Below, in pieces: positions 2,648 through 19,048 of a DNA stretch of 32,000 bases. The stretch is from Acaryochloris marina S15 (GTDB taxonomy: Bacteria > Cyanobacteriota > Cyanobacteriia > Thermosynechococcales > Thermosynechococcaceae): NCBI RefSeq assembly GCF_018336915.1, contig NZ_CP064923.1:30001-62000 (forward strand). Reading direction: 5' to 3'. A program made the translations under genes and the position numbers. Every line of letters begins with the position of its first letter. The first letter of the stretch is position 1. The notes beneath the pieces were generated by a model. That model did no database searches. It was not told the DNA's origin and worked only from the letters and a program-made list of their open reading frames with translations.

Positions 2648-3091
2648 GTGAAGTTAACCACACGGGGACACTATAGTGTGAAGGCGTTGCTGGATTTGAG
2701 TCTGCAGCCTAATTTTGGACCGGCATCGGTGAATGCTATTGCCAAACGTCAGTCTCTCCCGGCTCCCTATTTGGAAAAGTTGCTGATGGAGTTACGACAA
2801 GCGGGGCTGGTTCGGTCTGTTCGGGGTTCTAAGGGAGGCTATCAGTTAGCCCGTCCTCCAGTGCAAATTTCTCTGGGGCATATTTTGGAGGCGGTGGGAG
2901 AAACGGTTGAACCGTTTACAGAACAATCAGCAGCAACCCAGCAAGCGGAAGATTGGGTGACCCTCACTCTCTGGAAACGCCTGCACCAAAAACTCAAGGA
3001 ATCCCTCTACAGTATTTCCCTAGAAGATCTCTATTTTGATGCCCGCAGTTGGCAAGCTGCTCAAGGGGCAGAGACTAGCTTTGTTGTTTAG
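2648..3091 (+). CDS. Rrf2 family transcriptional regulator
   Basis: 147-aa ORF with a GTG start. N-terminus (V/M)KLTTRGHYSVKALLDLSL and the SVRGSKGGYQLARP winged-helix signature are typical of Rrf2/IscR-like proteins. Confidence 0.85.
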   Translation: MKLTTRGHYSVKALLDLSLQPNFGPASVNAIAKRQSLPAPYLEKLLMELRQAGLVRSVRGSKGGYQLARPPVQISLGHILEAVGETVEPFTEQSAATQQAEDWVTLTLWKRLHQKLKESLYSISLEDLYFDARSWQAAQGAETSFVV

Positions 3092-3116
3092 ATTTTGATG
3101 ATGTGGCTAATCCCTA

Positions 3117-4412
3117 TTAGATAGGACTAATTTCAGCTTCTACAACGACATCTTGCATATCAAAGGCAGAGTTATTGGTGTAATTGGAGTCATACTCAAC
3201 TCCTAATTCATACAAGAATACGACCTGATTGTCATTGAGTTGTAAGGTTGTGTCGTCAGGGCCTTCTAATACTTCAGCGTCTTCTAAGAATGATGTAATA
3301 GACGCTTGTCCTCCGTAAGGCTGGAAAGAGGGTGAAGTATCACCATTGAAAAGTGTAATCACCTGTTTCAATGCAGCACTATTCCACTCATTTAAGTTAG
3401 AAAAATAGCTGAGTGTTGTGTCACCACAACTGTCCGATGCATTATCCAACAGATTTCCTGTAATGGTAAGAGTTGTATTTCGAGGTACTGAGCGAGTATA
3501 GGTTGGATCACCTGGATTAATGGTCATGCTCTCAGGTGCGCTGCTAGGAAAGACAAAATTAACTGTGGCGTTTGTGGGAATAGCAGGACCGCTCACTCCA
3601 CAAGTGACCTGACCTCCAACAACATTGATGCTGATATTAGCATCGTTTGTAAAGGTTACTGTCCCATCAGTAACACTAAAAATTCGGTCGGAAGTTGCGC
3701 CGGAAGATGTTGAAGGAGCAGGGACCGTTGCATAGGTTGGTCGGGTAGCAACGGTCGCATCAGCTGCATAAATTTCATTGGGACCCAAGGCTTTAACCAC
3801 GCTGCCTTGCTTGTAAAGTTTGGCAAGGCTGCCTGTATCGTTAACACATGACAAAAAACTAGATGTGCCCGTACCTGTCCAGCCTGGAGGACAACTGGGT
3901 AATGTTCCTGTGTCTTCTATGCGATCGATGAGTGGTTCATGTTCCCAATTGGCGGGGACATTTGCATCAATATACTCTCCATCACTATCTATGCTAGGAC
4001 CCCAACGGTAAACAACTTTAGGACCTCGCCAAGTGTTATTTGTTGAGGAAGCCAGGTAATAAATGACTGGTACTCCACCTATTTTGGGGTACAACATGAG
4101 TACAGGTGCGGCTCCTGTTGGTAGCCCCGTATTAAAGTCACTCGGCTTAGTGGCAGTCGCTACGTTTTTCTCTAATTTTTCAGCCTGGCGGACTTCTGTG
4201 GCAATGAAGTCTAAAGAACGATCCAGCTCTGTGCGCCTTTCATTCTGAGCATTGGCCGTTTGACTAGATGTCAAAATCGCAACTAGGCCGAATCCACCTA
4301 ATGAAACAACTCCCAAGCTAATAGCAGCAGCAACTAGCAATTCAGGGAGAGTAAATCCTTGTATTTGTGCTGAAGGTTTCACAGTTGTATGAAAGCGAGG
4401 AAGTCTATACAT
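3117..4412 (-). CDS. Type IV minor pilin/pseudopilin, PilW-like N-terminus with about 370 aa of unassigned C-terminal sequence (cluster A, gene 4)
   Basis: 431 aa. Leader MYRLPRFHTTVKPSAQIQ, then G|FTLPELLVAAAISLGVVSLGG (prepilin cleavage/N-methylation motif with Glu5 plus a hydrophobic helix). This is followed by ERRTELDRSLDFIATEVRQA, which resembles the PilW/PulJ class. The rest is Thr/Ser/Asn-rich with paired Cys. Confidence 0.75.
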   Translation of the reverse strand: MYRLPRFHTTVKPSAQIQGFTLPELLVAAAISLGVVSLGGFGLVAILTSSQTANAQNERRTELDRSLDFIATEVRQAEKLEKNVATATKPSDFNTGLPTGAAPVLMLYPKIGGVPVIYYLASSTNNTWRGPKVVYRWGPSIDSDGEYIDANVPANWEHEPLIDRIEDTGTLPSCPPGWTGTGTSSFLSCVNDTGSLAKLYKQGSVVKALGPNEIYAADATVATRPTYATVPAPSTSSGATSDRIFSVTDGTVTFTNDANISINVVGGQVTCGVSGPAIPTNATVNFVFPSSAPESMTINPGDPTYTRSVPRNTTLTITGNLLDNASDSCGDTTLSYFSNLNEWNSAALKQVITLFNGDTSPSFQPYGGQASITSFLEDAEVLEGPDDTTLQLNDNQVVFLYELGVEYDSNYTNNSAFDMQDVVVEAEISPI

Positions 4413-4648
4413 ATGTTCAGTGTAAATAGCAAAAATGAACGTTTTATAGTGCTTGAAAGTAAAATGTCTAATAAATTGAGTTGATTTAGCTAGAAACTTT
4501 GATTTCTGGATAGTGAGAGAGTTGTATATATTAGTTTAGAGGAAAAATATTAGTTTATTTTATCAACTTTAGACATTACATTTCAGTAAATTAGCTTGCC
4601 AATTTACAATCAGTTTTTTTGATTTCGACAAAGCGGTCTGAAACACAC

Positions 4649-5185
4649 TTAAGATGACGTATGGCAGTTAGTGGGTGTGGCTTGCCCTGAAGAAGGAGGA
4701 AATGAGCCTTTAAATTCTCCTACTCGAATGATGCCAATACCTGCAGAAATGGCTAAGCAGCGCATTCCTCCTGATTGGTCAGGATGGTAAAACACAAAGA
4801 CGTTACTCGAAGAAGTAGATCCTTTGGGAGAAAACTCTATTGTGTCTGGGTTTTGAGCAACTAGTGTTACTCCTGATATTTGGTTTCTGCCGTTGACTTG
4901 AGTTAGATCTCGGCTCCCTGTTGGTAAGCAATTAGAGGGGTTAGCTGCAACCGATGAAGATGTGATGGTCAAACTGCAGCGTTGGCTTGTTCGAATTGCT
5001 GAAGCTTGACCTTCTTTTAAAGCGCCTTCTACTTGCGCCAGAACATCTTCTACCCTTTTTTTATTGACCCAACTTAAAAAACTAGGAGTTCCTAGAGCGG
5101 CAAAAATTCCTAAGATTAATACTATGGCTAAGACTTCGGGTAAGGAAAAACCTTGATATTTTTTTGTGGATTGTAGTTGTTTCAT
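4649..5185 (-). CDS. GspH/FimT(FimU)-like minor pilin (cluster A, gene 3)
   Basis: The track ORF is 4649..5317. Met45 (ATG 5185..5183) gives MKQLQSTKKYQ G|FSLPEVLAIVLILGIFAALGTPSFLSW, then KRVEDVLAQVEGALKEGQASAIRTSQRCSLT (GspH/FimT-like). The longer start would overlap the upstream gene by 107 nt. Confidence 0.7.
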   Translation of the reverse strand: MKQLQSTKKYQGFSLPEVLAIVLILGIFAALGTPSFLSWVNKKRVEDVLAQVEGALKEGQASAIRTSQRCSLTITSSSVAANPSNCLPTGSRDLTQVNGRNQISGVTLVAQNPDTIEFSPKGSTSSSNVFVFYHPDQSGGMRCLAISAGIGIIRVGEFKGSFPPSSGQATPTNCHTSS

Positions 5186-5210
5186 GTCCTTAGTTGATAG
5201 AATCCTCAAC

Positions 5211-5759
5211 TCAAGGACATGCCAAGGAAGCATCTGGAATAATTTTGGCTTGAGTGATAGCGATTGGAATAAATTTGCCTTCAATGATCTCGCTGGGGGA
5301 GTAATCGGCTGATACAACTCGATATTCCAATTTCAGAACATTAAATGGCGCTGATGTTGGAAGAGTATGAATGCGAGCTACAGTATAAGCCCGATTGCCA
5401 ATCGCACTGGTTTTATTAGTAAATTGAGGCGAAATATTATCCAGTCCATTAATTTCGTCTAGTAGGCGGTCTGCATATCCTGTAGTTTTTGTTCTTCCTT
5501 GGCAGGCATCTAGAACAATGTTGTAGCTAGAGCCAGCATAATCTAATCGATTGGATTCATACCTCACTCGTTCAAGATCTTCTTGAATCCAAGTGGTTGC
5601 TTCGCTGAGTTCTTTACCTTTAACTCTAAAGACGGTGGCGGCCACGAAAGCTTGCATTGCTGTACCAATGAAACTTGCAATTATTACTAAACCTACTAGT
5701 ACTTCAACTAATGTGAAGCCAGCTTCTCGGGGGTGATTAAAACTAGACTGCCTAGGCAT
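5211..5759 (-). CDS. Small type IV minor pilin/pseudopilin, PilV-like size class (cluster A, gene 2)
   Basis: 182 aa. MPRQSSFNHPREA G|FTLVEVLVGLVIIASFIGTAMQAF shows the classic prepilin leader, Glu5 and hydrophobic helix. Confidence 0.75.
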   Translation of the reverse strand: MPRQSSFNHPREAGFTLVEVLVGLVIIASFIGTAMQAFVAATVFRVKGKELSEATTWIQEDLERVRYESNRLDYAGSSYNIVLDACQGRTKTTGYADRLLDEINGLDNISPQFTNKTSAIGNRAYTVARIHTLPTSAPFNVLKLEYRVVSADYSPSEIIEGKFIPIAITQAKIIPDASLACP

Positions 5760-5922
5760 AGACTTAGCTCACTATCTCTAAAAAATTAGGTTATGGTTCT
5801 TTTAATTCTGTCTAATAATTTGTTTGATGAAGCCTAGAATAATTACATGATAAGCATTTATGCAGAATTAATTACAATCCATTTCTTTGCTAACTCAAAT
5901 GCCCTTAGCTTGCTTTATACTT

Positions 5923-7305
5923 TTAGCTCACGTCTTTCTCTTTAGTTTCCCAGGATTGGATCGGACCAATTTGAGGAGGATATGTGATGGTTATCGGTGC
6001 ACTTCCCCAGGCTCCTCTTGGTGGATCTAATACAGGAGTTCTAACTGCCCCATCGTCTAACCAACGGTTAACCCAAAAAATACCTGTATTTAAGTTGTAA
6101 GAAGTTGGGGCGCTTGGGTTACTTGGAGGTGGGGGCTTGAGACTACAATAATCGTTGTTAGAGATAGGAGGTGGAGCAGCTACTGGCGAAGATCCACTTT
6201 TTTTGTTCATGACATCATAGCTTGGGGCATGGATGAAAATATCACATACTACTGAGCCTTTATCCAAAGTAATATCTTTATCACCGCCTTGGCCGAAAAT
6301 TTTTACTGTGTGAGCATTGCAGTTGGGTCGGCTACCACAAATGTTCCTGATTTTTTCCCCTCTTAAATCAATATCTTCATTGACCCATATCTCAATTATT
6401 TTTAGAGGGCCTGTATCATTATTTACAGAAAAACCACCATCCAAATCGTCGATGACATATCTATATGTCTGTGTATTGTTGGTGGAGTTGCTCTCTTGAG
6501 CTACCTCAAACGGTTGAGGTAAAGTACTAGGCATGCTTGTCAGTAAGTGAAAGTTACCTGGTAAAGGTTGGGCAAGTACGGCTGGTATATTAATACTGGC
6601 ATTAGACAACTCTAACTCCCGTGATTTGTATAGATTAGGGTTAGTTGGAATGGTTGTCACAGAATTGCAGTTACCTAGCACATCCGCTTCGATCTCACCT
6701 GTATTAGCTGAAGTTTGAACCCACAAACCTGCAATGTTAGGCGGAGGTGGATATACAGGGAATTTAACTTCTAGCTGAGAAATGGATTCGCTAGGTTGGC
6801 CTTCGTTGACTCTGCCTTGAACCGTCAAAATCCCAACGTTACTGGTATAGGTGTAATCTACTAATCTATATTCACCTTGAGAAGGTTTACTAGAATCCAC
6901 ATCATGCCAAACAGTCCGTTTGGCATGACTAGCAATTTTGCTATTGTTATCGGATGCACAGCCCAAGAAAGGACTGGCTATGTTGCTTGGGTTATGCCAA
7001 CTGGTTTCCGAGCTACTATCTTGGCAAATATTATTGCTAGCCCAACCTAGTTTGCAGGCAGGCTGCAACGCGAGTTCACGATAGTCGTTGATGAGATTTC
7101 GAATTTCGTTGACCCCGGTTTCTGCGGCGTTGAGGCTTTTGGCGGTATCTTTTTGTGCGATCGCACTCACCTGACTATCTTGCGATCGCAAAAGCATCGT
7201 CAACCCGACTAACAGGATAATCAGTCCCATCCCAATGGCGACAGGCAAAGCAAAGCCTGCTTGTCCCTTTCGGTATTTCAGAGAGTATACAATCCATTTA
7301 TTCAT
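5923..7305 (-). CDS. PilX_N-type pilus-associated protein with Pro-rich C-terminal region (cluster A, gene 1)
   Basis: 460 aa. The N-terminus GQAGFALPVAIGMGLIILLVGLTMLL has no Glu5. It is followed by SLNAAETGVNEI, the pattern I associate with the PilX N-terminal domain (hydrophobic helix, then an A-A-E-x-G motif). Later segments include PPPPNIAG and AAPPPISNNDYCSLKPPPPSNPSAP. Confidence 0.6.
   Translation of the reverse strand: MNKWIVYSLKYRKGQAGFALPVAIGMGLIILLVGLTMLLRSQDSQVSAIAQKDTAKSLNAAETGVNEIRNLINDYRELALQPACKLGWASNNICQDSSSETSWHNPSNIASPFLGCASDNNSKIASHAKRTVWHDVDSSKPSQGEYRLVDYTYTSNVGILTVQGRVNEGQPSESISQLEVKFPVYPPPPNIAGLWVQTSANTGEIEADVLGNCNSVTTIPTNPNLYKSRELELSNASINIPAVLAQPLPGNFHLLTSMPSTLPQPFEVAQESNSTNNTQTYRYVIDDLDGGFSVNNDTGPLKIIEIWVNEDIDLRGEKIRNICGSRPNCNAHTVKIFGQGGDKDITLDKGSVVCDIFIHAPSYDVMNKKSGSSPVAAPPPISNNDYCSLKPPPPSNPSAPTSYNLNTGIFWVNRWLDDGAVRTPVLDPPRGAWGSAPITITYPPQIGPIQSWETKEKDVS
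7157..7189. repeat. HIP1 (GCGATCGC) palindromes: a representative pair among eight copies in the window
   Basis: GCGATCGC occurs at 7157, 7182, 11444, 14761, 19447, 19813, 20545 and 23731 (start positions, read by eye). A random 32-kb sequence would be expected to contain about 0.5 copies of a given palindromic 8-mer. HIP1 enrichment is a hallmark of many cyanobacterial genomes. Confidence 0.8.
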
Positions 7306-7559
7306 GGTTGAGAGTTTTCGCCAACACAGATGTACAGCATTCTATCTAATACAGATCTTGCAGATTGTTATACAAACTATACCGAATATCTCTATAAAAA
7401 TTAAGTATTTCTCCTCACGTCAATCAATGATTTCGAGTATAGCCATTCTAGCAGTTGGCTTCAGTACTGGCAGACAATAATGTGATTTAGATCAGGCCTT
7501 AGCTGTAGTTTTTTGAGATAACAAAATATTTTGTCAACACTCAAATAAAAATAACTTTC

Positions 7560-7575
7560 AGTGATCTAGATCACA
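7560..7575. promoter_or_regulatory. CRP/SyCrp1-type binding-site candidate (aGTGA-N6-TCACA)
   Basis: The sequence is agtgatctagatcaca. The core GTGATCTAGATCAC is a perfect 14-bp palindrome and matches TGTGA-N6-TCACA at 9 of 10 positions. It lies 255 bp upstream of the cluster A start (7305) and 657 bp upstream of the cluster B start (8232). A weaker site, tgtgatttagatcagg, sits at 7481..7496. Confidence 0.5.
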
Positions 7576-8231
7576 CAAGCTAGTGATTTCGATTTCTAAA
7601 CTAGACTCTCAGGAAAAATAATTCATTCACCTTGATATGTCTAGGTTGAAAGGGTTGTGCCTGATTCTGTAAATACCTGATTCAGCCACATTCTACACAC
7701 CAGCATAAGTTTCTCTATCTACTAATTAACCAATATCAATCAGCAGTTTATAAAGATTGCTCGATTCTATAGTTCATGAATGATCTATTGCTAGGGTAAG
7801 AAATCTAGCAATATTTTGTCTGATATTGGTCTTTAGTTTACTTATTCTGTTGTTTCATATCTCTTAGTCGAGATCATTGTTTTCACTGAGATAATATATT
7901 TCTTGATTGTATATTTAAGTGTCTGAAAAGTATGACTTATAGGATTTCCGGGATATCACTGAGGTGACGAAGGAAGATTTTATATAAAGTTATTGTCAGG
8001 GATTGCGAAATCGTAAGGCAATATCTACCGAACCTATTTCTGGAATTGGTGCTTGGGAGCTACTGAAACCAGCATGGAGACTAATCAAGAGTCACTTGTT
8101 TGTGAGATCTTGGTGTGCTTTTGCATGGCGATTTTCTTGACGTGCAAAATATCGATCGACGCCTCAATTAGATGGTGATCAGTTTTGTTTAAGTTGAGTC
8201 CATCCTAGGAATTAAGAATAGAGTTTATCTC

Positions 8232-8810
8232 ATGGGTCAGTACAAGTTGTCTTTGGTACTTTACAACCACTTAATTAAATATTTGCAACCATCAGATCCT
8301 GATGCAGGATTCTCACTTATCGAAGTCATGGTTGTTATTGCACTTACGGCATTTCTAGCTGCTTTTGCCGTACCTGCGATCACTTTTGGTAACAATCCAC
8401 TGCGAGATTCATCTAACCGAATTGCCGCGAGTATGAAGTGGGCTAGGGCTCAAGCAATGGCTTCGACTTCTGCAGTGCGGATTCGCCCGATCTCAAATAC
8501 ACAATTTGTGATGGAGCGAGCGAATAGGTGTACTGAACCGAATGCTGCCAATTGGACCATTATTAGTGACCAAGTCGAAAAAGATGGGCAAATGGTCTAC
8601 GAAGATTTAAGTCTAGATACACCGGCACAGTTGACTACCGTTACGGAAGATGGAGTGGCTGCGACGCCTACAACTTGGGATATCTGTTTTAACACTCGAG
8701 GAATAGCGGATAAAACCCTGGCTCTAACGATGCAGCATACGGGAAATAGTGACCAACGAACCATGACTATTTTTCGCGGAGGCACAGTTGATCTTACTGA
8801 TATCAGTTAA
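8232..8810 (+). CDS. GspH/FimT(FimU)-like minor pilin (cluster B, gene 1)
   Basis: 192 aa. A long leader ends in DPDA G|FSLIEVMVVIALTAFLAAFAVPAITF, followed by RDSSNRIAASMKWARAQAMASTSAVRIRP (GspH/FimT-like). Confidence 0.7.
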   Translation: MGQYKLSLVLYNHLIKYLQPSDPDAGFSLIEVMVVIALTAFLAAFAVPAITFGNNPLRDSSNRIAASMKWARAQAMASTSAVRIRPISNTQFVMERANRCTEPNAANWTIISDQVEKDGQMVYEDLSLDTPAQLTTVTEDGVAATPTTWDICFNTRGIADKTLALTMQHTGNSDQRTMTIFRGGTVDLTDIS

Positions 8811-8856
8811 CGGTAACTCCCTAGAAATGAGAAATGTATCGTAGATCGAGAAATTC

Positions 8857-9297
8857 ATGAAAACTCATAGACCTCACTCCCCCAATCCATTGTTGCTCAG
8901 AATGTTGCGGACTTCACATACTGACGACAAAGGTCTCACCCTGGTAGAAGCGCTGGTTTCATTGCTGATCTTTTTTGTGGCTGCAGCATCTATTGTGCCG
9001 GTTTTTTTGAACTACACAATTTCTACGATTAACAACGAAAGACGCACTGGAGGTATTGCTGTTGCTCAGCAAGTGCTAGATGGACTGCGCCAGGTAGATA
9101 CCACGACTCTACAAGCTACTGGCTCCGACACCCTAACAGATGTTTCTTACTTGGGTAAGACTTATACCCCTATCGTTACTTACTGCCAGAATCCAGCATT
9201 CTGCACCAACCCAGACTCCCGGCACATCACACTTCAGGTATTCCACAATGGCGACGAAATTTACCAAGCTGAAACTGTTTTCACCAACCTCCAATAA
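8857..9297 (+). CDS. PilV-like small minor pilin (cluster B, gene 2)
   Basis: 146 aa. The leader ends in HTDDK G|LTLVEALVSLLIFFVAAASIVPVF, with Leu at +1 and Glu5 present. Confidence 0.7.
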   Translation: MKTHRPHSPNPLLLRMLRTSHTDDKGLTLVEALVSLLIFFVAAASIVPVFLNYTISTINNERRTGGIAVAQQVLDGLRQVDTTTLQATGSDTLTDVSYLGKTYTPIVTYCQNPAFCTNPDSRHITLQVFHNGDEIYQAETVFTNLQ

Positions 9298-10294
9298 AGG
9301 TTTTACGCTGGTTGAATTATTGGTTACAACCCTTATTGCTTCGGTAGTGCTGGTCTCTTCTCTGGGACTGATTACCAACCAACGTAGGCGCTTTGTCTCC
9401 GATCAGGTTCGTGCAGAATCTAATCAAACCTTGCGGGTGGGTTTGGATCTCATAGGTGCTGATATTAAAAATACGGGAGACTTTTTAGAGACGGATATTA
9501 ATTTGCCTGTGGTGTCTGTTATAGATGGTGCAGCAGGAGCACCAGACGAAGTTATTCTGCAGCGCAAACTCATCTCTGACACATTGACCGTTTGTGAAGA
9601 TGTTAATGCTGGTGTCCAAGCAACCATAACCGTTGCTGTGAGACCTGGTGCTGGTGACTGTCCGATCTATTCGGATGGTAATAATGATGATTTGAACGAT
9701 CCACTGACCCTGGCAAGCAGAGAACGCTGTGAACAAGACAATGTTGCGGGATGTGATCGAGTAGCTGCCCTTGCCTCAACTACTTGTGATGACGAATGCG
9801 TAACGGCCTATATATATGACCCTGTAGACCGTGAGGGTGAATTTTTTAGTTACTCATTTGAGGCACCTGATGCGACGCCTAATCCGACTCTGAATCGGAT
9901 ATTTGTTGGGGATGGTGCTGCTTTCGCCAATACCTATCAAGTGGCCAATAGACCCGTGATTTATCTCCTTGAGCAGCGACACTACCGGCTGAATAACAAT
10001 GTATTACAGCTAAGTGTGAATCGGGGTAATTTCGTATCGATAGTCAACCAGGTTGCAGATTTTCAGGTACAAGCACAGTTGACGACCAATCCCAACCCTC
10101 TAGATGCATTTAATTCTACGCCAGGTGGTGATCCACAAACTTACCAGCAGACTAATCCCTTTACATCCTTGCAATTTCTACAGGTAGATTTGCAGTCTGT
10201 CGATCCATCTGAATCTGATTTAACGGAATTGGATGCCGATCAGCGCCAGATTTCTTCTAGATTCTATCCACGTAATGCTAAGTCCGACGATTAA
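9248..10294 (+). CDS. PilW-like minor pilin (cluster B, gene 3)
   Basis: The track ORF starts at 9140. Met37 (ATG 9248) gives MATKFTKLKLFSPTSNK G|FTLVELLVTTLIASVVLVSSLGLI, then RAESNQTLRVGLDLIGADIKNTG (PilW-like). No other ATG, GTG or TTG start lies between 9248 and the cleavage motif. The gene therefore overlaps the previous one by at least 50 nt. Confidence 0.7.
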   Translation: MATKFTKLKLFSPTSNKGFTLVELLVTTLIASVVLVSSLGLITNQRRRFVSDQVRAESNQTLRVGLDLIGADIKNTGDFLETDINLPVVSVIDGAAGAPDEVILQRKLISDTLTVCEDVNAGVQATITVAVRPGAGDCPIYSDGNNDDLNDPLTLASRERCEQDNVAGCDRVAALASTTCDDECVTAYIYDPVDREGEFFSYSFEAPDATPNPTLNRIFVGDGAAFANTYQVANRPVIYLLEQRHYRLNNNVLQLSVNRGNFVSIVNQVADFQVQAQLTTNPNPLDAFNSTPGGDPQTYQQTNPFTSLQFLQVDLQSVDPSESDLTELDADQRQISSRFYPRNAKSDD

Positions 10295-10359
10295 CGGTCT
10301 GTAGCTTTTTTGCCTTCCTATACAAGATTCTTTGCCTTACTTAGAGACTTATTACAGCT

Positions 10360-12882
10360 ATGAAGTACAATTCCAGCCGCTTTCACCACTCCTTATTTCA
10401 ACTGTTGGTACGTCTTCAGCAGACTCGGCAAAAAGAGGGAGGATATAGCTTAGTCGTTACAGTGGCGATGCTGTTGATTTTGTCTACCCTGCTCATTAGT
10501 GCTGCGGTAGTCAGCAAAGTGGATACAGCGAGTACCAATGCTTCTGCTAGAAGTAGTAATGGCTTTTATGCTGCAGAAGCTGGGCTGAACTTGCGTGCTT
10601 CACAAATCCAAACCCAGTTTCGAGGGTTTCAGCGCCCTACAGGCACGGCTCCCCTAGATGACAATAATGACGGCGAAGTGTGGGATAACTGCGCAGATGG
10701 TAGCAGTGTTGGCACGGGTGATTTTGATTGTCGTCCATTTACGTTTCAAGGCCAAGATGTCTTTACCTACATTCAAGAGGTAGGGCAAGATGACAATTTG
10801 GATGGTGTCCCCGATGATGTGGATGGGGATGGTGTGGCCGATCCAATCTCTATTGTGGTGCCACCTGGAGAGAGGTTTGCAGGCTTAAGTGCTCAAGAAT
10901 ATCGGTATGATTTATGGTCTGTTGCCCAACGAAATGATCTCCCTTCTGCTGTATTGGGTATGACCTTCAAGAGTCGGGTAATTCCCTTATTTCAATTTGC
11001 TGTATTTTATGAAAATGATGCTGATTTTAGTATTCCGCCTGATATGACCATTAATGGTCGGGTGCATACCAATGGCGATCTATATTTAAATTCAGCTTTT
11101 AATCCTCTGAGACTGACTATCAACGGTGATGTGACAACTGCCGGCACCCTTTACAGAGGGAACAAAGATGCTAGAGGTGGACAACAGTGCAGCGGCAACG
11201 TCACGATTCGTAGACAAGATGGTAATCCTCAAGATTTACTGTGCCAGGGCAACGCCATTACATCCTATACCAACACCACAGCGACCCCCTCTAATATCAG
11301 TACTTGGGGAACTGCTATTGATACTGGGATTGATGTATTAGAAGTACCATCACCAGATGCCTATAATCCCACTCCTGGTAGTAGTTATTGGGATGCAGCA
11401 GATCTGCGGATTGTTCTGGAAGTTGATACGAATGGCAACCCTAGCGATCGCAACGGTAATGGTTATGTACTCGAAGTTCGCAATCAGGATGGCACCCCTA
11501 ACGACAATTTATCTGAACGACTGTTGAGAAGTTGCCCAGTGCCAGAAGCAGTATTACAGCCTGATTCAGATGCAAGTCCAACTCAATACCAACAAGGGAA
11601 AACACGTCTGCAATTACTCGATAACAGCAATTTAGGTACAAATGATTCCAACAGAATTGTGACGATTGGTGATCATGTTACTGATTCAGTCAACGTCGAT
11701 GTTGATAGTAATGTCATTAGTAGTCGACCTGCCACTGATGTGCGCCTTAGGAAGAGACTAAACCAAGAAATTAACTTTGACCCTGCGAACCCTCTTAACC
11801 TACCTGCCCTTCCAGGGACAATAACAGTACGCAAGGCTGTTGTCTCTACTTCCAACACCTTCTACAACTATCGGGAAAAACATGGTGTAGCGGGTGGTGA
11901 TGAGGGTCGTTTTATTCGAATGGTAGATGTTGATGTGCAGGCACTGCTCGATTGTTCTCATGATCAGCAATTAATGGGAGCCACACAGCTGAATGATCGT
12001 ACTGATGGGGGTTTAGTGTGGTTTGTCACAGTAGATACCCCTGACCCTAAACCCAATCTCAGTGATGATCCAGATGCTGATAGCGATAATAACTCTCAAG
12101 TTGGCAGTATCTATGGCGTGCGTCTTTATAATGGCGCTTCTCTCAATACTAGTGCTGCAGTTACTGGTGCGCCGACCATTGAGGGATTAACGGTTATCTC
12201 TGATGAAGCAGTCTACGTTCGTGGTGACTATAACCTTCACACAGATCCTGATCCAGCTGTTGATACTTGGAGACCAGCAGCTATTATGGCTGACTCCATC
12301 AATGTTTTATCGAATTCATCTTTGCTCGATGACTCTGATCGCCGGATATTTGATACCACAGGTGGTGATGGACATCCCAACAACATCCAATATCCTCGAG
12401 GAGATAATCGAGGAACGATTAATTGGAATGCTGGTCCTCGCAATTCTACTGAAACTACTATCAATGCTGCCTTTCTCTCAGGAACTGAAATTACTGGGGG
12501 GGCCAACGGTTCAGCAACGCAGCTAAATACTATCCAAAGTGGTGGGGTCAACAACTTCCCGCGATTTCATGAAAATTGGTCTGGTATTCCTTTGAATTAT
12601 CGAGGGTCTTTGGTAAGCCTCAGTGAACCTCGGCGGATCAATTCTGATTTTTGTGGCAGTAGAAATGAAACTACTTGCAATATTTACAGCCCTCCGATCA
12701 GAAATTGGGATTTCGATCAGCGGTTTAATGATGCGGGTGACTTACCCCCACTCACGCCCCGAACGGTTTATTTGCGTCAGGAATTGTTCCAGCGTGATTT
12801 TGACCGCAACTCAAGTCGATCCGTGCAGTTGTTTGCTTCTGCACCTATTCTTCCTTCCATTCAGCCCAATTTTTCTCTGTAA
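10360..12882 (+). CDS. Large PilX_N-type pilus-associated protein with Asp-rich calcium-site-like motif (cluster B, gene 4)
   Basis: 840 aa. The N-terminus KEGGYSLVVTVAMLLILSTLLISAAVV has no Glu5 and is followed by NGFYAAEAGLN (PilX_N pattern). Asp-rich DDNNDGEVWDNCADGSS and DDNLDGVPDDVDGDGVADP occupy residues 100-161 (nt 10657..10842). The rest is long and Asn/Asp/Thr-rich. Confidence 0.6.
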   Translation: MKYNSSRFHHSLFQLLVRLQQTRQKEGGYSLVVTVAMLLILSTLLISAAVVSKVDTASTNASARSSNGFYAAEAGLNLRASQIQTQFRGFQRPTGTAPLDDNNDGEVWDNCADGSSVGTGDFDCRPFTFQGQDVFTYIQEVGQDDNLDGVPDDVDGDGVADPISIVVPPGERFAGLSAQEYRYDLWSVAQRNDLPSAVLGMTFKSRVIPLFQFAVFYENDADFSIPPDMTINGRVHTNGDLYLNSAFNPLRLTINGDVTTAGTLYRGNKDARGGQQCSGNVTIRRQDGNPQDLLCQGNAITSYTNTTATPSNISTWGTAIDTGIDVLEVPSPDAYNPTPGSSYWDAADLRIVLEVDTNGNPSDRNGNGYVLEVRNQDGTPNDNLSERLLRSCPVPEAVLQPDSDASPTQYQQGKTRLQLLDNSNLGTNDSNRIVTIGDHVTDSVNVDVDSNVISSRPATDVRLRKRLNQEINFDPANPLNLPALPGTITVRKAVVSTSNTFYNYREKHGVAGGDEGRFIRMVDVDVQALLDCSHDQQLMGATQLNDRTDGGLVWFVTVDTPDPKPNLSDDPDADSDNNSQVGSIYGVRLYNGASLNTSAAVTGAPTIEGLTVISDEAVYVRGDYNLHTDPDPAVDTWRPAAIMADSINVLSNSSLLDDSDRRIFDTTGGDGHPNNIQYPRGDNRGTINWNAGPRNSTETTINAAFLSGTEITGGANGSATQLNTIQSGGVNNFPRFHENWSGIPLNYRGSLVSLSEPRRINSDFCGSRNETTCNIYSPPIRNWDFDQRFNDAGDLPPLTPRTVYLRQELFQRDFDRNSSRSVQLFASAPILPSIQPNFSL

Positions 12883-12916
12883 CCTATTAGACGGAAGTCG
12901 ATTTGACGTTTGAAAT

Positions 12917-12968
12917 CCCATAGTACAAAAACAGGAGCTAAGCTTGGCTCCTGTTTTTGTACTATGGG
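12917..12968. terminator. Long perfect hairpin downstream of the pilin cluster B operon; likely a terminator
   Basis: cccatagtacaaaaacaggagc (12917..12938) is the exact reverse complement of gctcctgtttttgtactatggg (12947..12968). That gives a 22-bp perfect stem with an 8-nt loop, starting 35 nt after the stop at 12882. The T-run sits inside the descending arm rather than after it. A second small hairpin, ggctg-aaaa-cagcc, lies at 12974..12987. Confidence 0.55.
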
Positions 12969-13174
12969 CAGTGGGCTGAAAACAGCCTGATCAACTACCG
13001 AGTCACCTGATAGCTCTCCATCAAAGGAGTAGGATCAGTTAGTTTAGATTATGGCCATATTTTCCATACCTACTGCCTACTCCTTAGGACAGCAAGTCCT
13101 CAAGCCAGATTCAATATGACTACTCTTGTCGTCACTTATCGATTTATCTCAATACTTATGTGTGTTTGTAGTCA

Positions 13175-16156: not shown

Positions 16157-19048
16157 ATGGTGAGAACTGATCTAAACCTGAGAATGTTAGACATCTCAGT
16201 TGCCAGTTTTAACCAGTCCAATGCAGATCAGCTAAGAAAGATGAGCCAGAAGAGATATGGCTGGCTGTGGAAGATAGCAATTTTGCCATCCCTTGCCATT
16301 GGATTAGTCACGGGGACACCGGATGTTAAAGCAGAAGAGAATATTCTAGTTATTCATTCTTACCATCCAGAACTGTCTTGGACTGACCAAGTTAAACAGG
16401 GCATTGACCAATCTTTTCAAAAACGTCGGCCCGAGGCCAAAATTTTCCATGAATATCTAGATGGCAAACGTCTACCTGCCCTAGAACATTCTCAAAGTTT
16501 CCTAGAGTTGATTCAGGAAAAATATCAAAAGATACCCCTGGATGCCTTAATGGTTTCGGATGATCCGGGTTTACAGTTAATCTTGCAAGTTCGCGATCAG
16601 TATTTTCCCAAAGTGCCCATTGTGTTTTTGGGCATTAATCATGTTCAACCCGAACTCTACAATGTTCCTGGATTAACAGGAGTATTTGAAAAACATAGCG
16701 TCGCTCAGACTGTTCAAGTTGCTAAGCAACTGACGGGGGCAGATGGCTTGATTGTGATTAATGATTCCACGGAAACGGGACAAGCCAATATCAAACGGAT
16801 CAATGAGATCAAACAGCTCCCTAACGTGCCTCAATCCATTGCGATTATCCATGATGTGACACCTGAAGATTTACCTCAAAGGTTATCTGCCTTTCCTTCG
16901 ACATGGCCGGTATTGCCTATGGGGCAGCTCCGTCAAGGTCATGCCAAAGGAAAGTTGATTAACTTTGAGATGGATACCCAAATCCTCAGAGACAAGTTGC
17001 CGAATCCCCTGTTTACTGCCACAGTGATGCGGGTAGGGCCAGGAGCCGTAGGCGGCAAAGTTCTTGAAGGGGGGTTTCATGCTGACCAGGCAGTCCGTTT
17101 GGTTGAACAAATTTTGGATGGGGCTAATCCGACTGATCTGGAGCCGATTGCTGAGTCCAAAAATCTGTGGATGTTCGATGCTAGAGAGCTAAAGCGTTTT
17201 CGGATCAATCCTCGAGATTTACCCGTAGGTAGCATGGTGCTCTATAGTGAGCCCTCCTTTTATGACCAGCATCAGGGTTTGGTATGGGTCGTCTTCGGCG
17301 CTTTTTCCAGTTCTTTAGTGATGATTGCTTTGCTGATAGAGGTATTGCGTCGGCGAGCACAGGTTGAGAAAACCTTGCGAGACAATGAAAAACGCTATAA
17401 AGACCTGGCAGAAGTGGGTGCCAATACCTTCTGGGAATTGGATATAAATCTGAATTTGTCCTATGTCTCTGATCGGAAGGGGTATCAAACATCAGCCATT
17501 TCTTCTCAGGCCATTGGTTTGTCTTTAACGGATGTGTTTGCAGATGAAGAGATGTTTGAGTTTAATACCAAACGTCTAGACACTATTCTGCATTGGCGTC
17601 GACCGATTCAAGACTTTATCTTTTTTGCCAAAGAAGATAATCAAGAGATGCGAATCTTTAAGCTGAATGGTAAGCCTATTGTTGATGATGCCCAGCTATT
17701 TCAGGGGTATCGAGGGATTCAGCGAGATATTACCGAAGAGTATTTCTTAACCAAAAAGATTGCCTATCAGGCGGCCTACGATAGTTTAACGAATCTGTTG
17801 AATCGTTCAGAGTTTGATAATCGGTTACAAGAATCCGTCGATCAGGCTAGAGAAGACAAGACTAAGTTTGTATTGTGCTATCTCGATTTGGACCAATTCA
17901 AGTTGGTCAACGATACCGCTGGCCATATGGTTGGCGATCAGTTGCTCACCGAATTAGCACAACTCCTCAAACAAAAGATTCGCCCCGATGATGTTCTGGG
18001 ACGTTTGGGGGGGGATGAATTTGGATTGCTGATGCAAGACTGCTCTTTGTCAGAAGCCCAAGCCTGTTGTGAAATGTTGGTGACTACAGTCCAGACCTTC
18101 CGCTTTCAGTGGCAAGACAGTCAATTTAGAGTGGGGGTGAGTGTTGGTATTGTGGCCTTCGCAGATGCCAGCTATACCTCAGAAGAACTTTTAAGTCGGG
18201 CAGACCTGGCTTGCTATAAAGCCAAGGATGCTGGCCGGGGACGAGTCTACGTTGCCAATCAAAATGATCGTGAGCTAGACCATTATCAATTGCAAATGGC
18301 TCATATTGCGGATATTCCCCAAGCCATTGAAGAAGACCGATTATTCTTAGTGAAGCAGCCTATCCTGAATATTAATCAGCCTTCTGCTCTATTTCGCCAT
18401 TATGAAATTCTTTTACGGTTGAGAGATGGCAAAAACAATATTATTGGGCCTGGATTGTTTATTCCGGCGGCAGAACGCTATGGCGTGATTGGTCTGATTG
18501 ACAAGTGGGTGTTAGAAAATACCCTCCGCCAGTACTATCAATGTGGCTTAAAAGATGTGGTTGTTTCCATTAATCTGTCAGGGGCCAGCATTAATGATGA
18601 GCGAGCGATGGCGGACGTCATTGCCTTGATCACCCAGTCCAATGTGCCCCCCAGCAATATTTGTATCGAGATTACTGAAACGGCCACCATTGCTCAATTG
18701 GATCAGGCCCTGCGGTTTATTGAATCCCTCAAGAAGATTGGGGTAAAGTTTGCTTTGGATGATTTTGGCAGTGGTGTGTCCTCCCTGAGCTATTTGAAGA
18801 GCTTACCGGTGGACTACCTCAAGATCGATGGCAGTTTGGTGAAGAATATTGCTGTTGTAGAGAGTGATCGCGAAATCATCTACCTAATTAATGAGTTAGC
18901 CCATAAGCGAGGGATGAAAACGATTGCTGAATTTGTGGAAAATGAGCAGATTCTAGAGCAGTTACGGATTATTGGTGTGGACTATGCCCAAGGCTATGGC
19001 ATTGGTAAGCCAGAGCCGTTAGCGGTCACTCAATTAATGGTTAGCTGA
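16157..19048 (+). CDS. Membrane-bound sensory diguanylate cyclase/phosphodiesterase (periplasmic domain-TM-PAS-GGDEF-EAL)
   Basis: 963 aa. Hydrophobic segment WKIAILPSLAIGLV, a roughly 330-aa periplasmic-type domain, then a second TM (LVWVVFGAFSSSLVMIALLI) and a PAS-like region. The GGDEF domain has an RPDD I-site five residues before LGGDEFGLL. The EAL domain shows YEILLRL, DDFGSG, and EFVE...QGY. A later Met (MLDISV or MSQKRYG) could be the true start. Confidence 0.9.
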   Translation: MVRTDLNLRMLDISVASFNQSNADQLRKMSQKRYGWLWKIAILPSLAIGLVTGTPDVKAEENILVIHSYHPELSWTDQVKQGIDQSFQKRRPEAKIFHEYLDGKRLPALEHSQSFLELIQEKYQKIPLDALMVSDDPGLQLILQVRDQYFPKVPIVFLGINHVQPELYNVPGLTGVFEKHSVAQTVQVAKQLTGADGLIVINDSTETGQANIKRINEIKQLPNVPQSIAIIHDVTPEDLPQRLSAFPSTWPVLPMGQLRQGHAKGKLINFEMDTQILRDKLPNPLFTATVMRVGPGAVGGKVLEGGFHADQAVRLVEQILDGANPTDLEPIAESKNLWMFDARELKRFRINPRDLPVGSMVLYSEPSFYDQHQGLVWVVFGAFSSSLVMIALLIEVLRRRAQVEKTLRDNEKRYKDLAEVGANTFWELDINLNLSYVSDRKGYQTSAISSQAIGLSLTDVFADEEMFEFNTKRLDTILHWRRPIQDFIFFAKEDNQEMRIFKLNGKPIVDDAQLFQGYRGIQRDITEEYFLTKKIAYQAAYDSLTNLLNRSEFDNRLQESVDQAREDKTKFVLCYLDLDQFKLVNDTAGHMVGDQLLTELAQLLKQKIRPDDVLGRLGGDEFGLLMQDCSLSEAQACCEMLVTTVQTFRFQWQDSQFRVGVSVGIVAFADASYTSEELLSRADLACYKAKDAGRGRVYVANQNDRELDHYQLQMAHIADIPQAIEEDRLFLVKQPILNINQPSALFRHYEILLRLRDGKNNIIGPGLFIPAAERYGVIGLIDKWVLENTLRQYYQCGLKDVVVSINLSGASINDERAMADVIALITQSNVPPSNICIEITETATIAQLDQALRFIESLKKIGVKFALDDFGSGVSSLSYLKSLPVDYLKIDGSLVKNIAVVESDREIIYLINELAHKRGMKTIAEFVENEQILEQLRIIGVDYAQGYGIGKPEPLAVTQLMVS

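Follow-up and report, generated by a model that had tools for sequence, protein, structure and literature searches.

Why should a cyanobacterium keep two sets of minor pilins back to back at a single chromosomal site? The question is raised by a stretch of DNA from Acaryochloris marina S15 (contig NZ_CP064923.1, positions 30,001 to 62,000; the whole 32-kb stretch is called the window here) in which a pilin locus occupies positions 3117-12882. The proteins encoded on each strand are termed X, V, H and W, with (-) and (+) denoting the minus and the plus strand. In our view the locus quite probably specifies two alternative type IV pilus tips, each served by a complete core set of minor pilins (FimT/GspH-PilV-PilW-PilX). 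We document the gene content, motifs, homology, predicted folds and synteny of the locus; the formation of complexes, the existence of two filament types and their functions are what we infer.

The two-set concept itself is not new. Schuergers et al. (2026, bioRxiv 10.64898/2026.02.12.705559) classified the pilins of 90 cyanobacterial genomes and presented two conserved core sets, FimT-PilW-PilV-PilX, as a general cyanobacterial feature. The 'EPS' type (PilA9-12), whose PilX is homologous to HpsA, primes long adhesive motility pili, and the 'Com' type (PilA5-8 and PilX1-3; in Synechococcus elongatus PilA3/PilW/RntA/RntB) primes short dynamic competence pili; the latter type is defined by a non-HpsA PilX that occurs together with a PilV of the PilA5/RntB subfamily. 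In Synechocystis either set alone is enough for piliation, and the functional split was confirmed in Thermosynechococcus. The same authors propose that a beta-solenoid of PilX replaces PilY1, which is generally absent from cyanobacteria, and point to ComZ as the structural precedent of a PilX that carries a solenoid. They report up to 44 pilin genes and multiple sets in A. marina; the Acaryochloris genes are not listed in the supplementary text of the preprint. Our two-tip reading builds on this experimental precedent for independent priming sets and on the PilX solenoid. A sequence-only reading of the window, made earlier, had also arrived at two alternative tips, an idea for which the Synechocystis and Thermosynechococcus experiments were already published.

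Eight pilin genes on two strands

Eight intact pilin-type genes are present at 3117-12882, and they are the only such genes in the window according to both the list of open reading frames (ORFs) and a motif scan. They form two divergent tetrads, ordered X-V-H-W on the minus strand and H-V-W-X on the plus strand, as follows (lengths in amino acids, aa; the arrow marks the end of the leader):

5923-7305, minus strand: X(-), 460 aa, QAG↓FALPV without Glu5, then LNAAETGV; PilX-like minor pilin
5211-5759, minus strand: V(-), 182 aa, AG↓FTLVE; small PilV-like minor pilin
4649-5182, minus strand: H(-), 177 aa from ATG, QG↓FSLPE; FimT/GspH-like minor pilin
3117-4412, minus strand: W(-), 431 aa, QG↓FTLPE; PilW/GspJ-like minor pilin with an extra C-terminal beta domain
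8232-8810, plus strand: H(+), 192 aa, AG↓FSLIE; FimT/GspH-like minor pilin
8857-9297, plus strand: V(+), 146 aa, KG↓LTLVE; small PilV-like minor pilin
9248-10294, plus strand: W(+), 348 aa from ATG, KG↓FTLVE; PilW/HpsC-like minor pilin
10360-12882, plus strand: X(+), 840 aa, GG↓YSLVV, then FYAAEAGL; large PilX-like protein of the HpsA-related (EPS) type

A longer ORF of H(-), starting with TTG, extends to 5317 and overlaps V(-). W(+) and V(+) overlap by 50 nucleotides (nt), and an identical overlap is annotated in a homologous locus (L001).

Six of the eight proteins carry the motif G↓(F/L)(T/S)L-x-E followed by a hydrophobic helix, i.e. they have the leader ending in Gly, the hydrophobic residue at +1, the Glu at +5 and the run of about 20 hydrophobic residues of type IV pilin-like proteins. 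As in other PilX-type proteins, Glu5 is missing from the two X proteins (G↓FALPV and G↓YSLVV), which continue with an AAE-x-G motif. The pattern G-[hydrophobic]-[STAG]-L-x-[EVQ], followed by a hydrophobic stretch, was searched in all six frames of the window. It gave eight sites that are exactly the eight pilin-type genes, which argues that their clustering is not due to chance; one additional match contains a stop codon and is spurious. Since the scan gave no further valid site, the major pilin is absent from the 32-kb window. The six prepilin leaders, two PilX_N-like N-termini and two divergent tetrads of the sequence-only reading are thus borne out by the ORF list and the six-frame scan.

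The eight proteins were compared with the Pfam and NCBIfam models at the curated cut-offs. N_methyl or TIGR02532 reached the cut-off in five of the six classical pilins: V(-), H(+) and W(+) scored 28.3, 29.3 and 26.6 bits with N_methyl, W(-) passed with TIGR02532, and V(+) fell 0.2 bit short (21.0 vs 21.2). The GspH model (PF12019, cut-off 21 bits) was matched by H(+) with 33.1 bits; H(-) remained borderline and sub-threshold at 18.2 bits. H(-) also matches ComGD (E 3.7e-8), and its orthologue in Acaryochloris thomasi has a weak match to Pfam GspH. The cut-off of the PilV class (TIGR02523, 52.2 bits) was not reached by V(+) (23 bits, 9e-5) or V(-) (15.9 bits). For V(-), the PilV, GspI and ComGE models gave only sub-threshold matches; the gene adjoins X as it does in three homologous loci (L003, L005 and L009). 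W(-) reached 22 bits (1.2e-4) with GspJ, the cut-off being 64.85, and had no match to Pfam PilW, so that the PilW/GspJ class was likewise not attained; matches to HpsC are confined to the N-terminus of W(-) (6.8e-8) and W(+) (1.9e-7). With PilX_N (PF14341, cut-off 25.5 bits) X(+) gave a weak 12.2 bits and X(-) no match, and homologues of both X proteins are named PilX or PilX_N-domain proteins in UniRef and JGI. The V, W and X labels are therefore based on gene order, size, N-terminal similarity to PilV, GspJ, HpsC and PilX_N, and the names of homologues. In other words, the profiles sustain the earlier class assignment for the pilin signature in five of six proteins and for GspH in H(+); the PilV, PilW and PilX models remained below threshold.

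The NCBIfam HpsA model matches X(+) in four stretches (E 6.1e-15). None of the equivalog models HpsA, HpsB and HpsC (NF038301/3/4) is satisfied by the window proteins, as X(+) reaches 54 bits of 400, the W proteins 31-32 of 200 and the V proteins 15-16 of 150; the hps genes of Dolichospermum, used as a control, pass with 1117, 211 and 372 bits. By these scores X(+) is a distant relative of HpsA and not an HpsA equivalog. It had been remarked that the X and W proteins are unusually large, which does not apply to W(+): its 348 aa are ordinary for HpsC-like pilins (the HpsC profile has 318 positions).

Two lineages and the predicted modules of their pilins

Judged from the sequences, the plus set fits the definition of the EPS type, i.e. 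the four classes stand in one block and the PilX is homologous to HpsA. The minus set would then be, by exclusion, the second, non-HpsA ('Com') type: X(-) has no HpsA match, and its similarity to the X(+) family is limited to the PilX_N region. When compared with each other, the X families align only in the PilX_N helix (hhalign 86%, E 5e-6), and W(-) and W(+) align only in alpha1. A recent duplication of one tetrad was considered and is ruled out by the same observation. As both the X pair and the W pair have just the N-terminal helix in common, the two sets represent two old lineages.

Both lineages are widespread. X(+) has 260 homologues across cyanobacteria, many of them named "Tfp pilus assembly protein PilX". 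X(-) is 100% identical to a protein of A. marina. A word-based search returned 30 relatives of X(-), and a profile search of 1.84 billion representatives returned 622 clusters, 225 of them at E<=1e-30 and nearly all of these full length. The clusters include Nostoc azollae, Anabaena, Dolichospermum, Oculatellaceae and Thermosynechococcaceae; a search by cluster names gave only hypothetical or PilX names from Nostocales, Oculatellaceae and Thermosynechococcaceae. In Dolichospermum heterosporum (CP099464; locus L005, 1-11247) genuine hpsA-hpsB-hpsC are divergently adjoined by an X-V-H-W tetrad, and the X of this tetrad is homologous to X(-) over its full length. From this head-to-head arrangement it follows that the divergent pairing predates the split of Acaryochloris and Nostocales, and the comparison suggests that the pairing of an HpsA-type set with the second type is old and widespread. 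The view of the minus set as a differently organised and probably less characterised variant, which the sequence-only reading had favoured, does not survive the 622 clusters of its X family and the X-V-H-W tetrad beside hpsA-C.

Two further arrangements were noted. A. thomasi (L003, 3524-12479) has two tandem minus-type sets on one strand, X417-V194-H188-W519 followed by W421-X412-V197-H194 (numbers are lengths in aa), with no adjacent HpsA-type set. Thermus thermophilus (AP025596; L016, 4244-7812) has an H-V-W-X tetrad of 154, 125, 299 and 603 aa. Its 603-aa PilX-family protein shares 43% identity with X(+) in the N-terminal part and 40% in the C-terminal part, and lacks a counterpart of X(+) residues ~358-480; as it has no match in the PDB, it is not ComZ. 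The conservation between X(+) and this protein, as it appears in the alignment, is striking across phyla.

The sequence-only reading had also stated that no PilY1 accompanies either set, and our searches agree. None of the eight proteins matched the Pfam or NCBIfam PilY1/PilC models at E<=1, and the family profiles of X(+), X(-) and W(-) found only weak N-terminal pilin matches in the PDB and no PilY1/PilC. The X(-) and W(-) models had no Foldseek match to a propeller fold (PilY1 PF05567-type), and no PilY1-like product was found among the remaining ORFs of the window. A PilY1 hidden within one of the large ORFs is ruled out by these profile searches of Pfam, NCBIfam and the PDB.

The AlphaFold2 model of X(-) has a mean predicted local distance difference test score (pLDDT) of 78.6. 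It consists of a helix (19-74), four long strands (145-201) and a last strand (451-455), and between these strands lies a beta-rich insertion of about 210 residues (209-418) with many short strands, for which pLDDT is ~90 over most of 240-370. In the predicted model the order of secondary-structure elements fits a pilin fold that is interrupted by a beta-rich domain before its last strand, and this position of the insertion matches the PilX architecture in the preprint of Schuergers et al. The model of W(-) (mean pLDDT 76) has a pilin part up to ~222, from which a linker of low confidence leads to an additional beta domain at the C-terminus (~245-430). The pilin part is made of alpha1 and a multi-strand beta region and is compatible with the PilW/GspJ class. 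The C-terminal domain (window positions 3117-3830) has pLDDT values mostly of 80-94, and its residues are conserved across the Acaryochloris/Thermosynechococcaceae family; the W of Dolichospermum has only 237 aa and lacks the domain. No sequence or fold match was obtained for it: Foldseek against the PDB and BFVD gave only beta-sandwich or phage-tail structures at low template modelling scores (~0.1), and its sole Pfam match, Cadherin_4, is at chance level and was discarded. The models support the suggestion that X(-) and W(-) carry extra beta-rich modules fused to pilin parts. The earlier proposal that an effector or adhesin function may be fused onto the pilins themselves agrees with the X(-) insertion and the W(-) C-terminal domain in these models, and with the relation of X(+) to HpsA.

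The common spacer and the variation between strains

The two tetrads diverge from a spacer of 926 nt (7306-8231), and both sets are probably controlled from it. The features recognised here and behind X(+) are the following:

7560-7575, palindromic: CRP-type site AGTGATCTAGATCACA, the sole site with at most 1 mismatch in 32 kb
7582-7607, plus strand: conserved box with a -10-like TAAACT/TAGACT, a putative promoter recognised by alignment conservation
7906-8231, plus strand: non-coding leader or promoter region upstream of H(+)
12917-12968, palindromic: near-perfect palindrome of 52 nt beginning 35 nt past the X(+) stop, with 26-nt arms, 96% complementarity and no loop

The consensus of the spacer palindrome is (A/T)GTGATCTAGATCAC. 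Its CRP core GTGATC-N2-GATCAC is invariant in all seven aligned Acaryochloris loci, and the surrounding DNA is ~60-80% identical. The centre of the site would lie near -41.5 relative to a putative start on the plus strand, at ~7609, a geometry that fits a class II CRP promoter directed toward the plus set with a leader of ~620 nt. Since SyCRP1 activates pilA9-slr2018 (Oeser et al.) and the CRP palindrome is conserved here, CRP may control the locus. The block 7906-8231 is conspicuously conserved (~80-95%), whereas the H(+) proteins of the same genomes are 53-65% identical. It contains a long imperfect palindrome around TTTCCGGGATATCACTGAGGTGA (7945-7967). Neither the Rfam scans nor covariation supported a riboswitch or structured RNA in the spacer: there was no match at the gathering threshold, the scan by E-value gave only RAGATH-12 (E=0.45), and covariation did not support an RNA structure in the block (RNAalifold covariation term -0.13). 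The palindrome behind X(+) also occurs in the very close strain of locus L004, and it is probably a terminator hairpin.

A narrow genome alignment of the X(-) family returned 10 loci, mostly Acaryochloris. In every Acaryochloris genome recovered, the locus lies between rrf2/pyk and cobD/mltA, the divergent pairing is kept across the genus, and all syntenic genomes examined have the eight ORFs intact. Identity among the Acaryochloris loci is 87-100% for the flanking proteins and 36-100% for the pilins. Compared with L004, the identity changes abruptly along the locus:

3251-5250: ~100% nt identity, W(-) and H(-)
5501-7000: 51-75% nt identity, 5' part of V(-) and X(-)
7251-9000: 98-100% nt identity, spacer and H(+)
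9250-12500: 71-96% nt identity, end of V(+), W(+) and X(+)

These abrupt switches point to allelic replacement by recombination. In the pairwise matrices (L004 and L006-L010) the allele relationships of X, V, H and W are discordant. For example, X(-) of strain MBIC11017 is 80% identical to that of bin148 and just 51% identical to that of bin176, yet V, H and W of the latter pair are 78-85% identical. This pattern implies that alleles of the tip subunits, mostly X and V, reassort by recombination at a fixed chromosomal site. No silent cassettes or long repeats able to drive the variation were found. Giltner and colleagues reportedly described, in 2011, allelic variation of minor-pilin operons between Pseudomonas aeruginosa strains.

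We tentatively extend this to the suggestion that the tip-exposed subunits are cassettes, swapped among Acaryochloris strains by homologous recombination across conserved anchors, and that the W(-) C-terminal domain is a second tip module. X(-) would be swapped, frequently along with V(-), and so would the variable middle portion of X(+); W would join them in deeper comparisons. Recombination would be anchored in H, in the regulatory spacer and in the flanking housekeeping genes. If true, each strain would acquire its own combination of pilus-tip specificities, possibly under the pressure of pilus-binding phages or of partner or substrate recognition, and the clade-specific domain of W(-) would be a previously unrecognised module of the tip.

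The other ORFs of the window are housekeeping (pyruvate kinase, Rrf2, CobD, MltA, a GGDEF-EAL protein, NdhH and others). The G+C content is 0.38-0.46 across the pilin locus (3000-13000) vs 0.50-0.52 in both flanks. Three genes away from the pilin locus lies the gene of the GGDEF-EAL protein (963 aa, 16157-19048). In the N-terminal sensor part this protein is only 74% identical to its MBIC11017 counterpart, against 92-99% for the neighbouring genes. This neighbour may be relevant, as cyclic di-GMP controls minor-pilin sets in Synechocystis.

Alternative explanations and known systems

If the locus does specify two tips, each set would come together at the inner membrane as a priming complex located at the tip, and this complex would seed polymerisation of a major pilin, encoded elsewhere, on a shared type IV pilus machine. 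The plus set would be the EPS or motility-adhesion type, i.e. the counterpart of Synechocystis PilA9-12, and the minus set would prime a different filament, possibly for DNA uptake. In the absence of PilY1, the tip would be capped by the bulky beta-rich insertion of each PilX and, in this lineage, also by the C-terminal domain of W(-), and these parts would determine what it binds. Several observations weigh against this proposal. The class-specific Pfam and NCBIfam models of PilV, PilW and PilX all remained below cut-off. X(-) could not be linked directly to RntA, Slr0226, Slr0442, Sll1268 or tll2333-35. Sequence and profile searches with the window proteins gave no link to ComZ, and Foldseek searches of the PDB with the X(-) and W(-) models gave neither ComZ nor another pilin among the matches listed; for X(-), no PDB match was significant. 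Moreover, Com-type sets can serve motility, as PilX2 and S. elongatus UTEX 3055 exemplify (Schuergers et al. 2026).

The last point leads to a different view of the minus set, namely that both sets prime adhesive pili which differ in their specificity for surfaces, cells or particles, the minus set being a cassette of variable adhesins that plays no part in competence. The minus-set X and W diverge extremely at a fixed locus and their alleles reassort, which is typical of exposed binding surfaces, and the extra domain of W(-) and the two tandem minus-type sets of A. thomasi point in the same direction, as do the Com-type sets that serve motility or biofilm behaviour in some species (Schuergers et al. 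2026). Nevertheless, orthologous Com-type loci are required for transformation in Synechocystis, S. elongatus and Thermosynechococcus vulcanus, and we regard this explanation as rather unlikely. Less plausible still is a reading in which the plus set, instead of a pilus tip, forms a pseudopilus within an Hps-like polysaccharide secretion system and drives exopolysaccharide export like the piston of a type II secretion system. It is true that X(+) matches HpsA, that both W proteins match the N-terminus of HpsC and that NCBIfam names the Hps proteins polysaccharide-secretion pseudopilins. However, the Hps equivalog cut-offs are missed widely (54 vs 400 bits), the flanks of the plus set contain no hps glycosyltransferase genes, and its gene order agrees with pilA9-12, whose products prime genuine surface pili in Synechocystis. 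Finally, the low sequence conservation of the minus set between strains might suggest that one set is decaying or redundant, a paralogue that has no function of its own. The eight intact ORFs of all the syntenic genomes, the invariant Cys, Trp and Gly positions kept in the X(-) and W(-) families and the distant relation of the two sets make this very improbable.

With two alternative tips as the preferred reading, the new leads of this work are modest: the strong reassortment of alleles, the extra domain of W(-), the conserved CRP palindrome with its leader, and the Thermus tetrad. What the Acaryochloris locus offers is both complete priming sets head-to-head around one conserved regulatory spacer, which makes it a convenient system to ask how one pilus machine chooses between tips, how PilX insertions substitute for PilY1 and how tip specificity diversifies among strains.

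Among the known systems, the fimU-pilVWXY1E cluster of Pseudomonas and the minor pilin/PilY1 clusters of Myxococcus have the same four pilin classes and a presumed tip-priming role. They differ from the present locus, where there is no PilY1 and no PilE, the PilX proteins are four to eight times larger, and two sets lie head-to-head. The second tetrad of T. thermophilus (not the ComZ/PilA2 one) has the H-V-W-X order of the plus set; ComZ differs in that the window proteins have no sequence match to it and X(-) has no Foldseek match to it among the matches listed. In Nostocales, HpsA of the hpsA-D genes shares regions with X(+), and hpsA-B-C of Dolichospermum stands beside an X(-)-type tetrad. 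The hps order is X-V-W-H, however, and not H-V-W-X as in the plus set, and the window proteins miss the Hps cut-offs.

The minus set resembles the Com-type sets of Synechocystis, S. elongatus and T. vulcanus (tll2333-35) in its smaller, non-HpsA PilX with a PilX_N-type N-terminus, in the adjacency of X and V, and in its complete H/V/W/X complement. PilX1-3 homologues adjoin PilA5 homologues in other cyanobacteria as well (Oeser et al.). It differs from these sets in being one operon-like block, X-V-H-W, and in the extra domain of ~190 aa in W. The plus set differs from Synechocystis pilA9-12 in that it has no downstream slr2019-like gene and stands head-to-head with a second set. In other respects the likeness is close. 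Literature comparison confirms the order FimT-PilV-PilW-PilX of PilA9-PilA10-PilA11-PilA12(Slr2018) in Synechocystis PCC 6803, as the sequence-only reading had indicated for the plus strand. Compared by description, Slr2018, a PilX_N protein of 773 aa with a hydrophobic +5 residue (Oeser et al.), and X(+) with its 840 aa are both large, hydrophobic at +5 and HpsA-related, and the CRP-dependent regulation of pilA9-12 has its parallel in the conserved CRP-type site between the two Acaryochloris sets.

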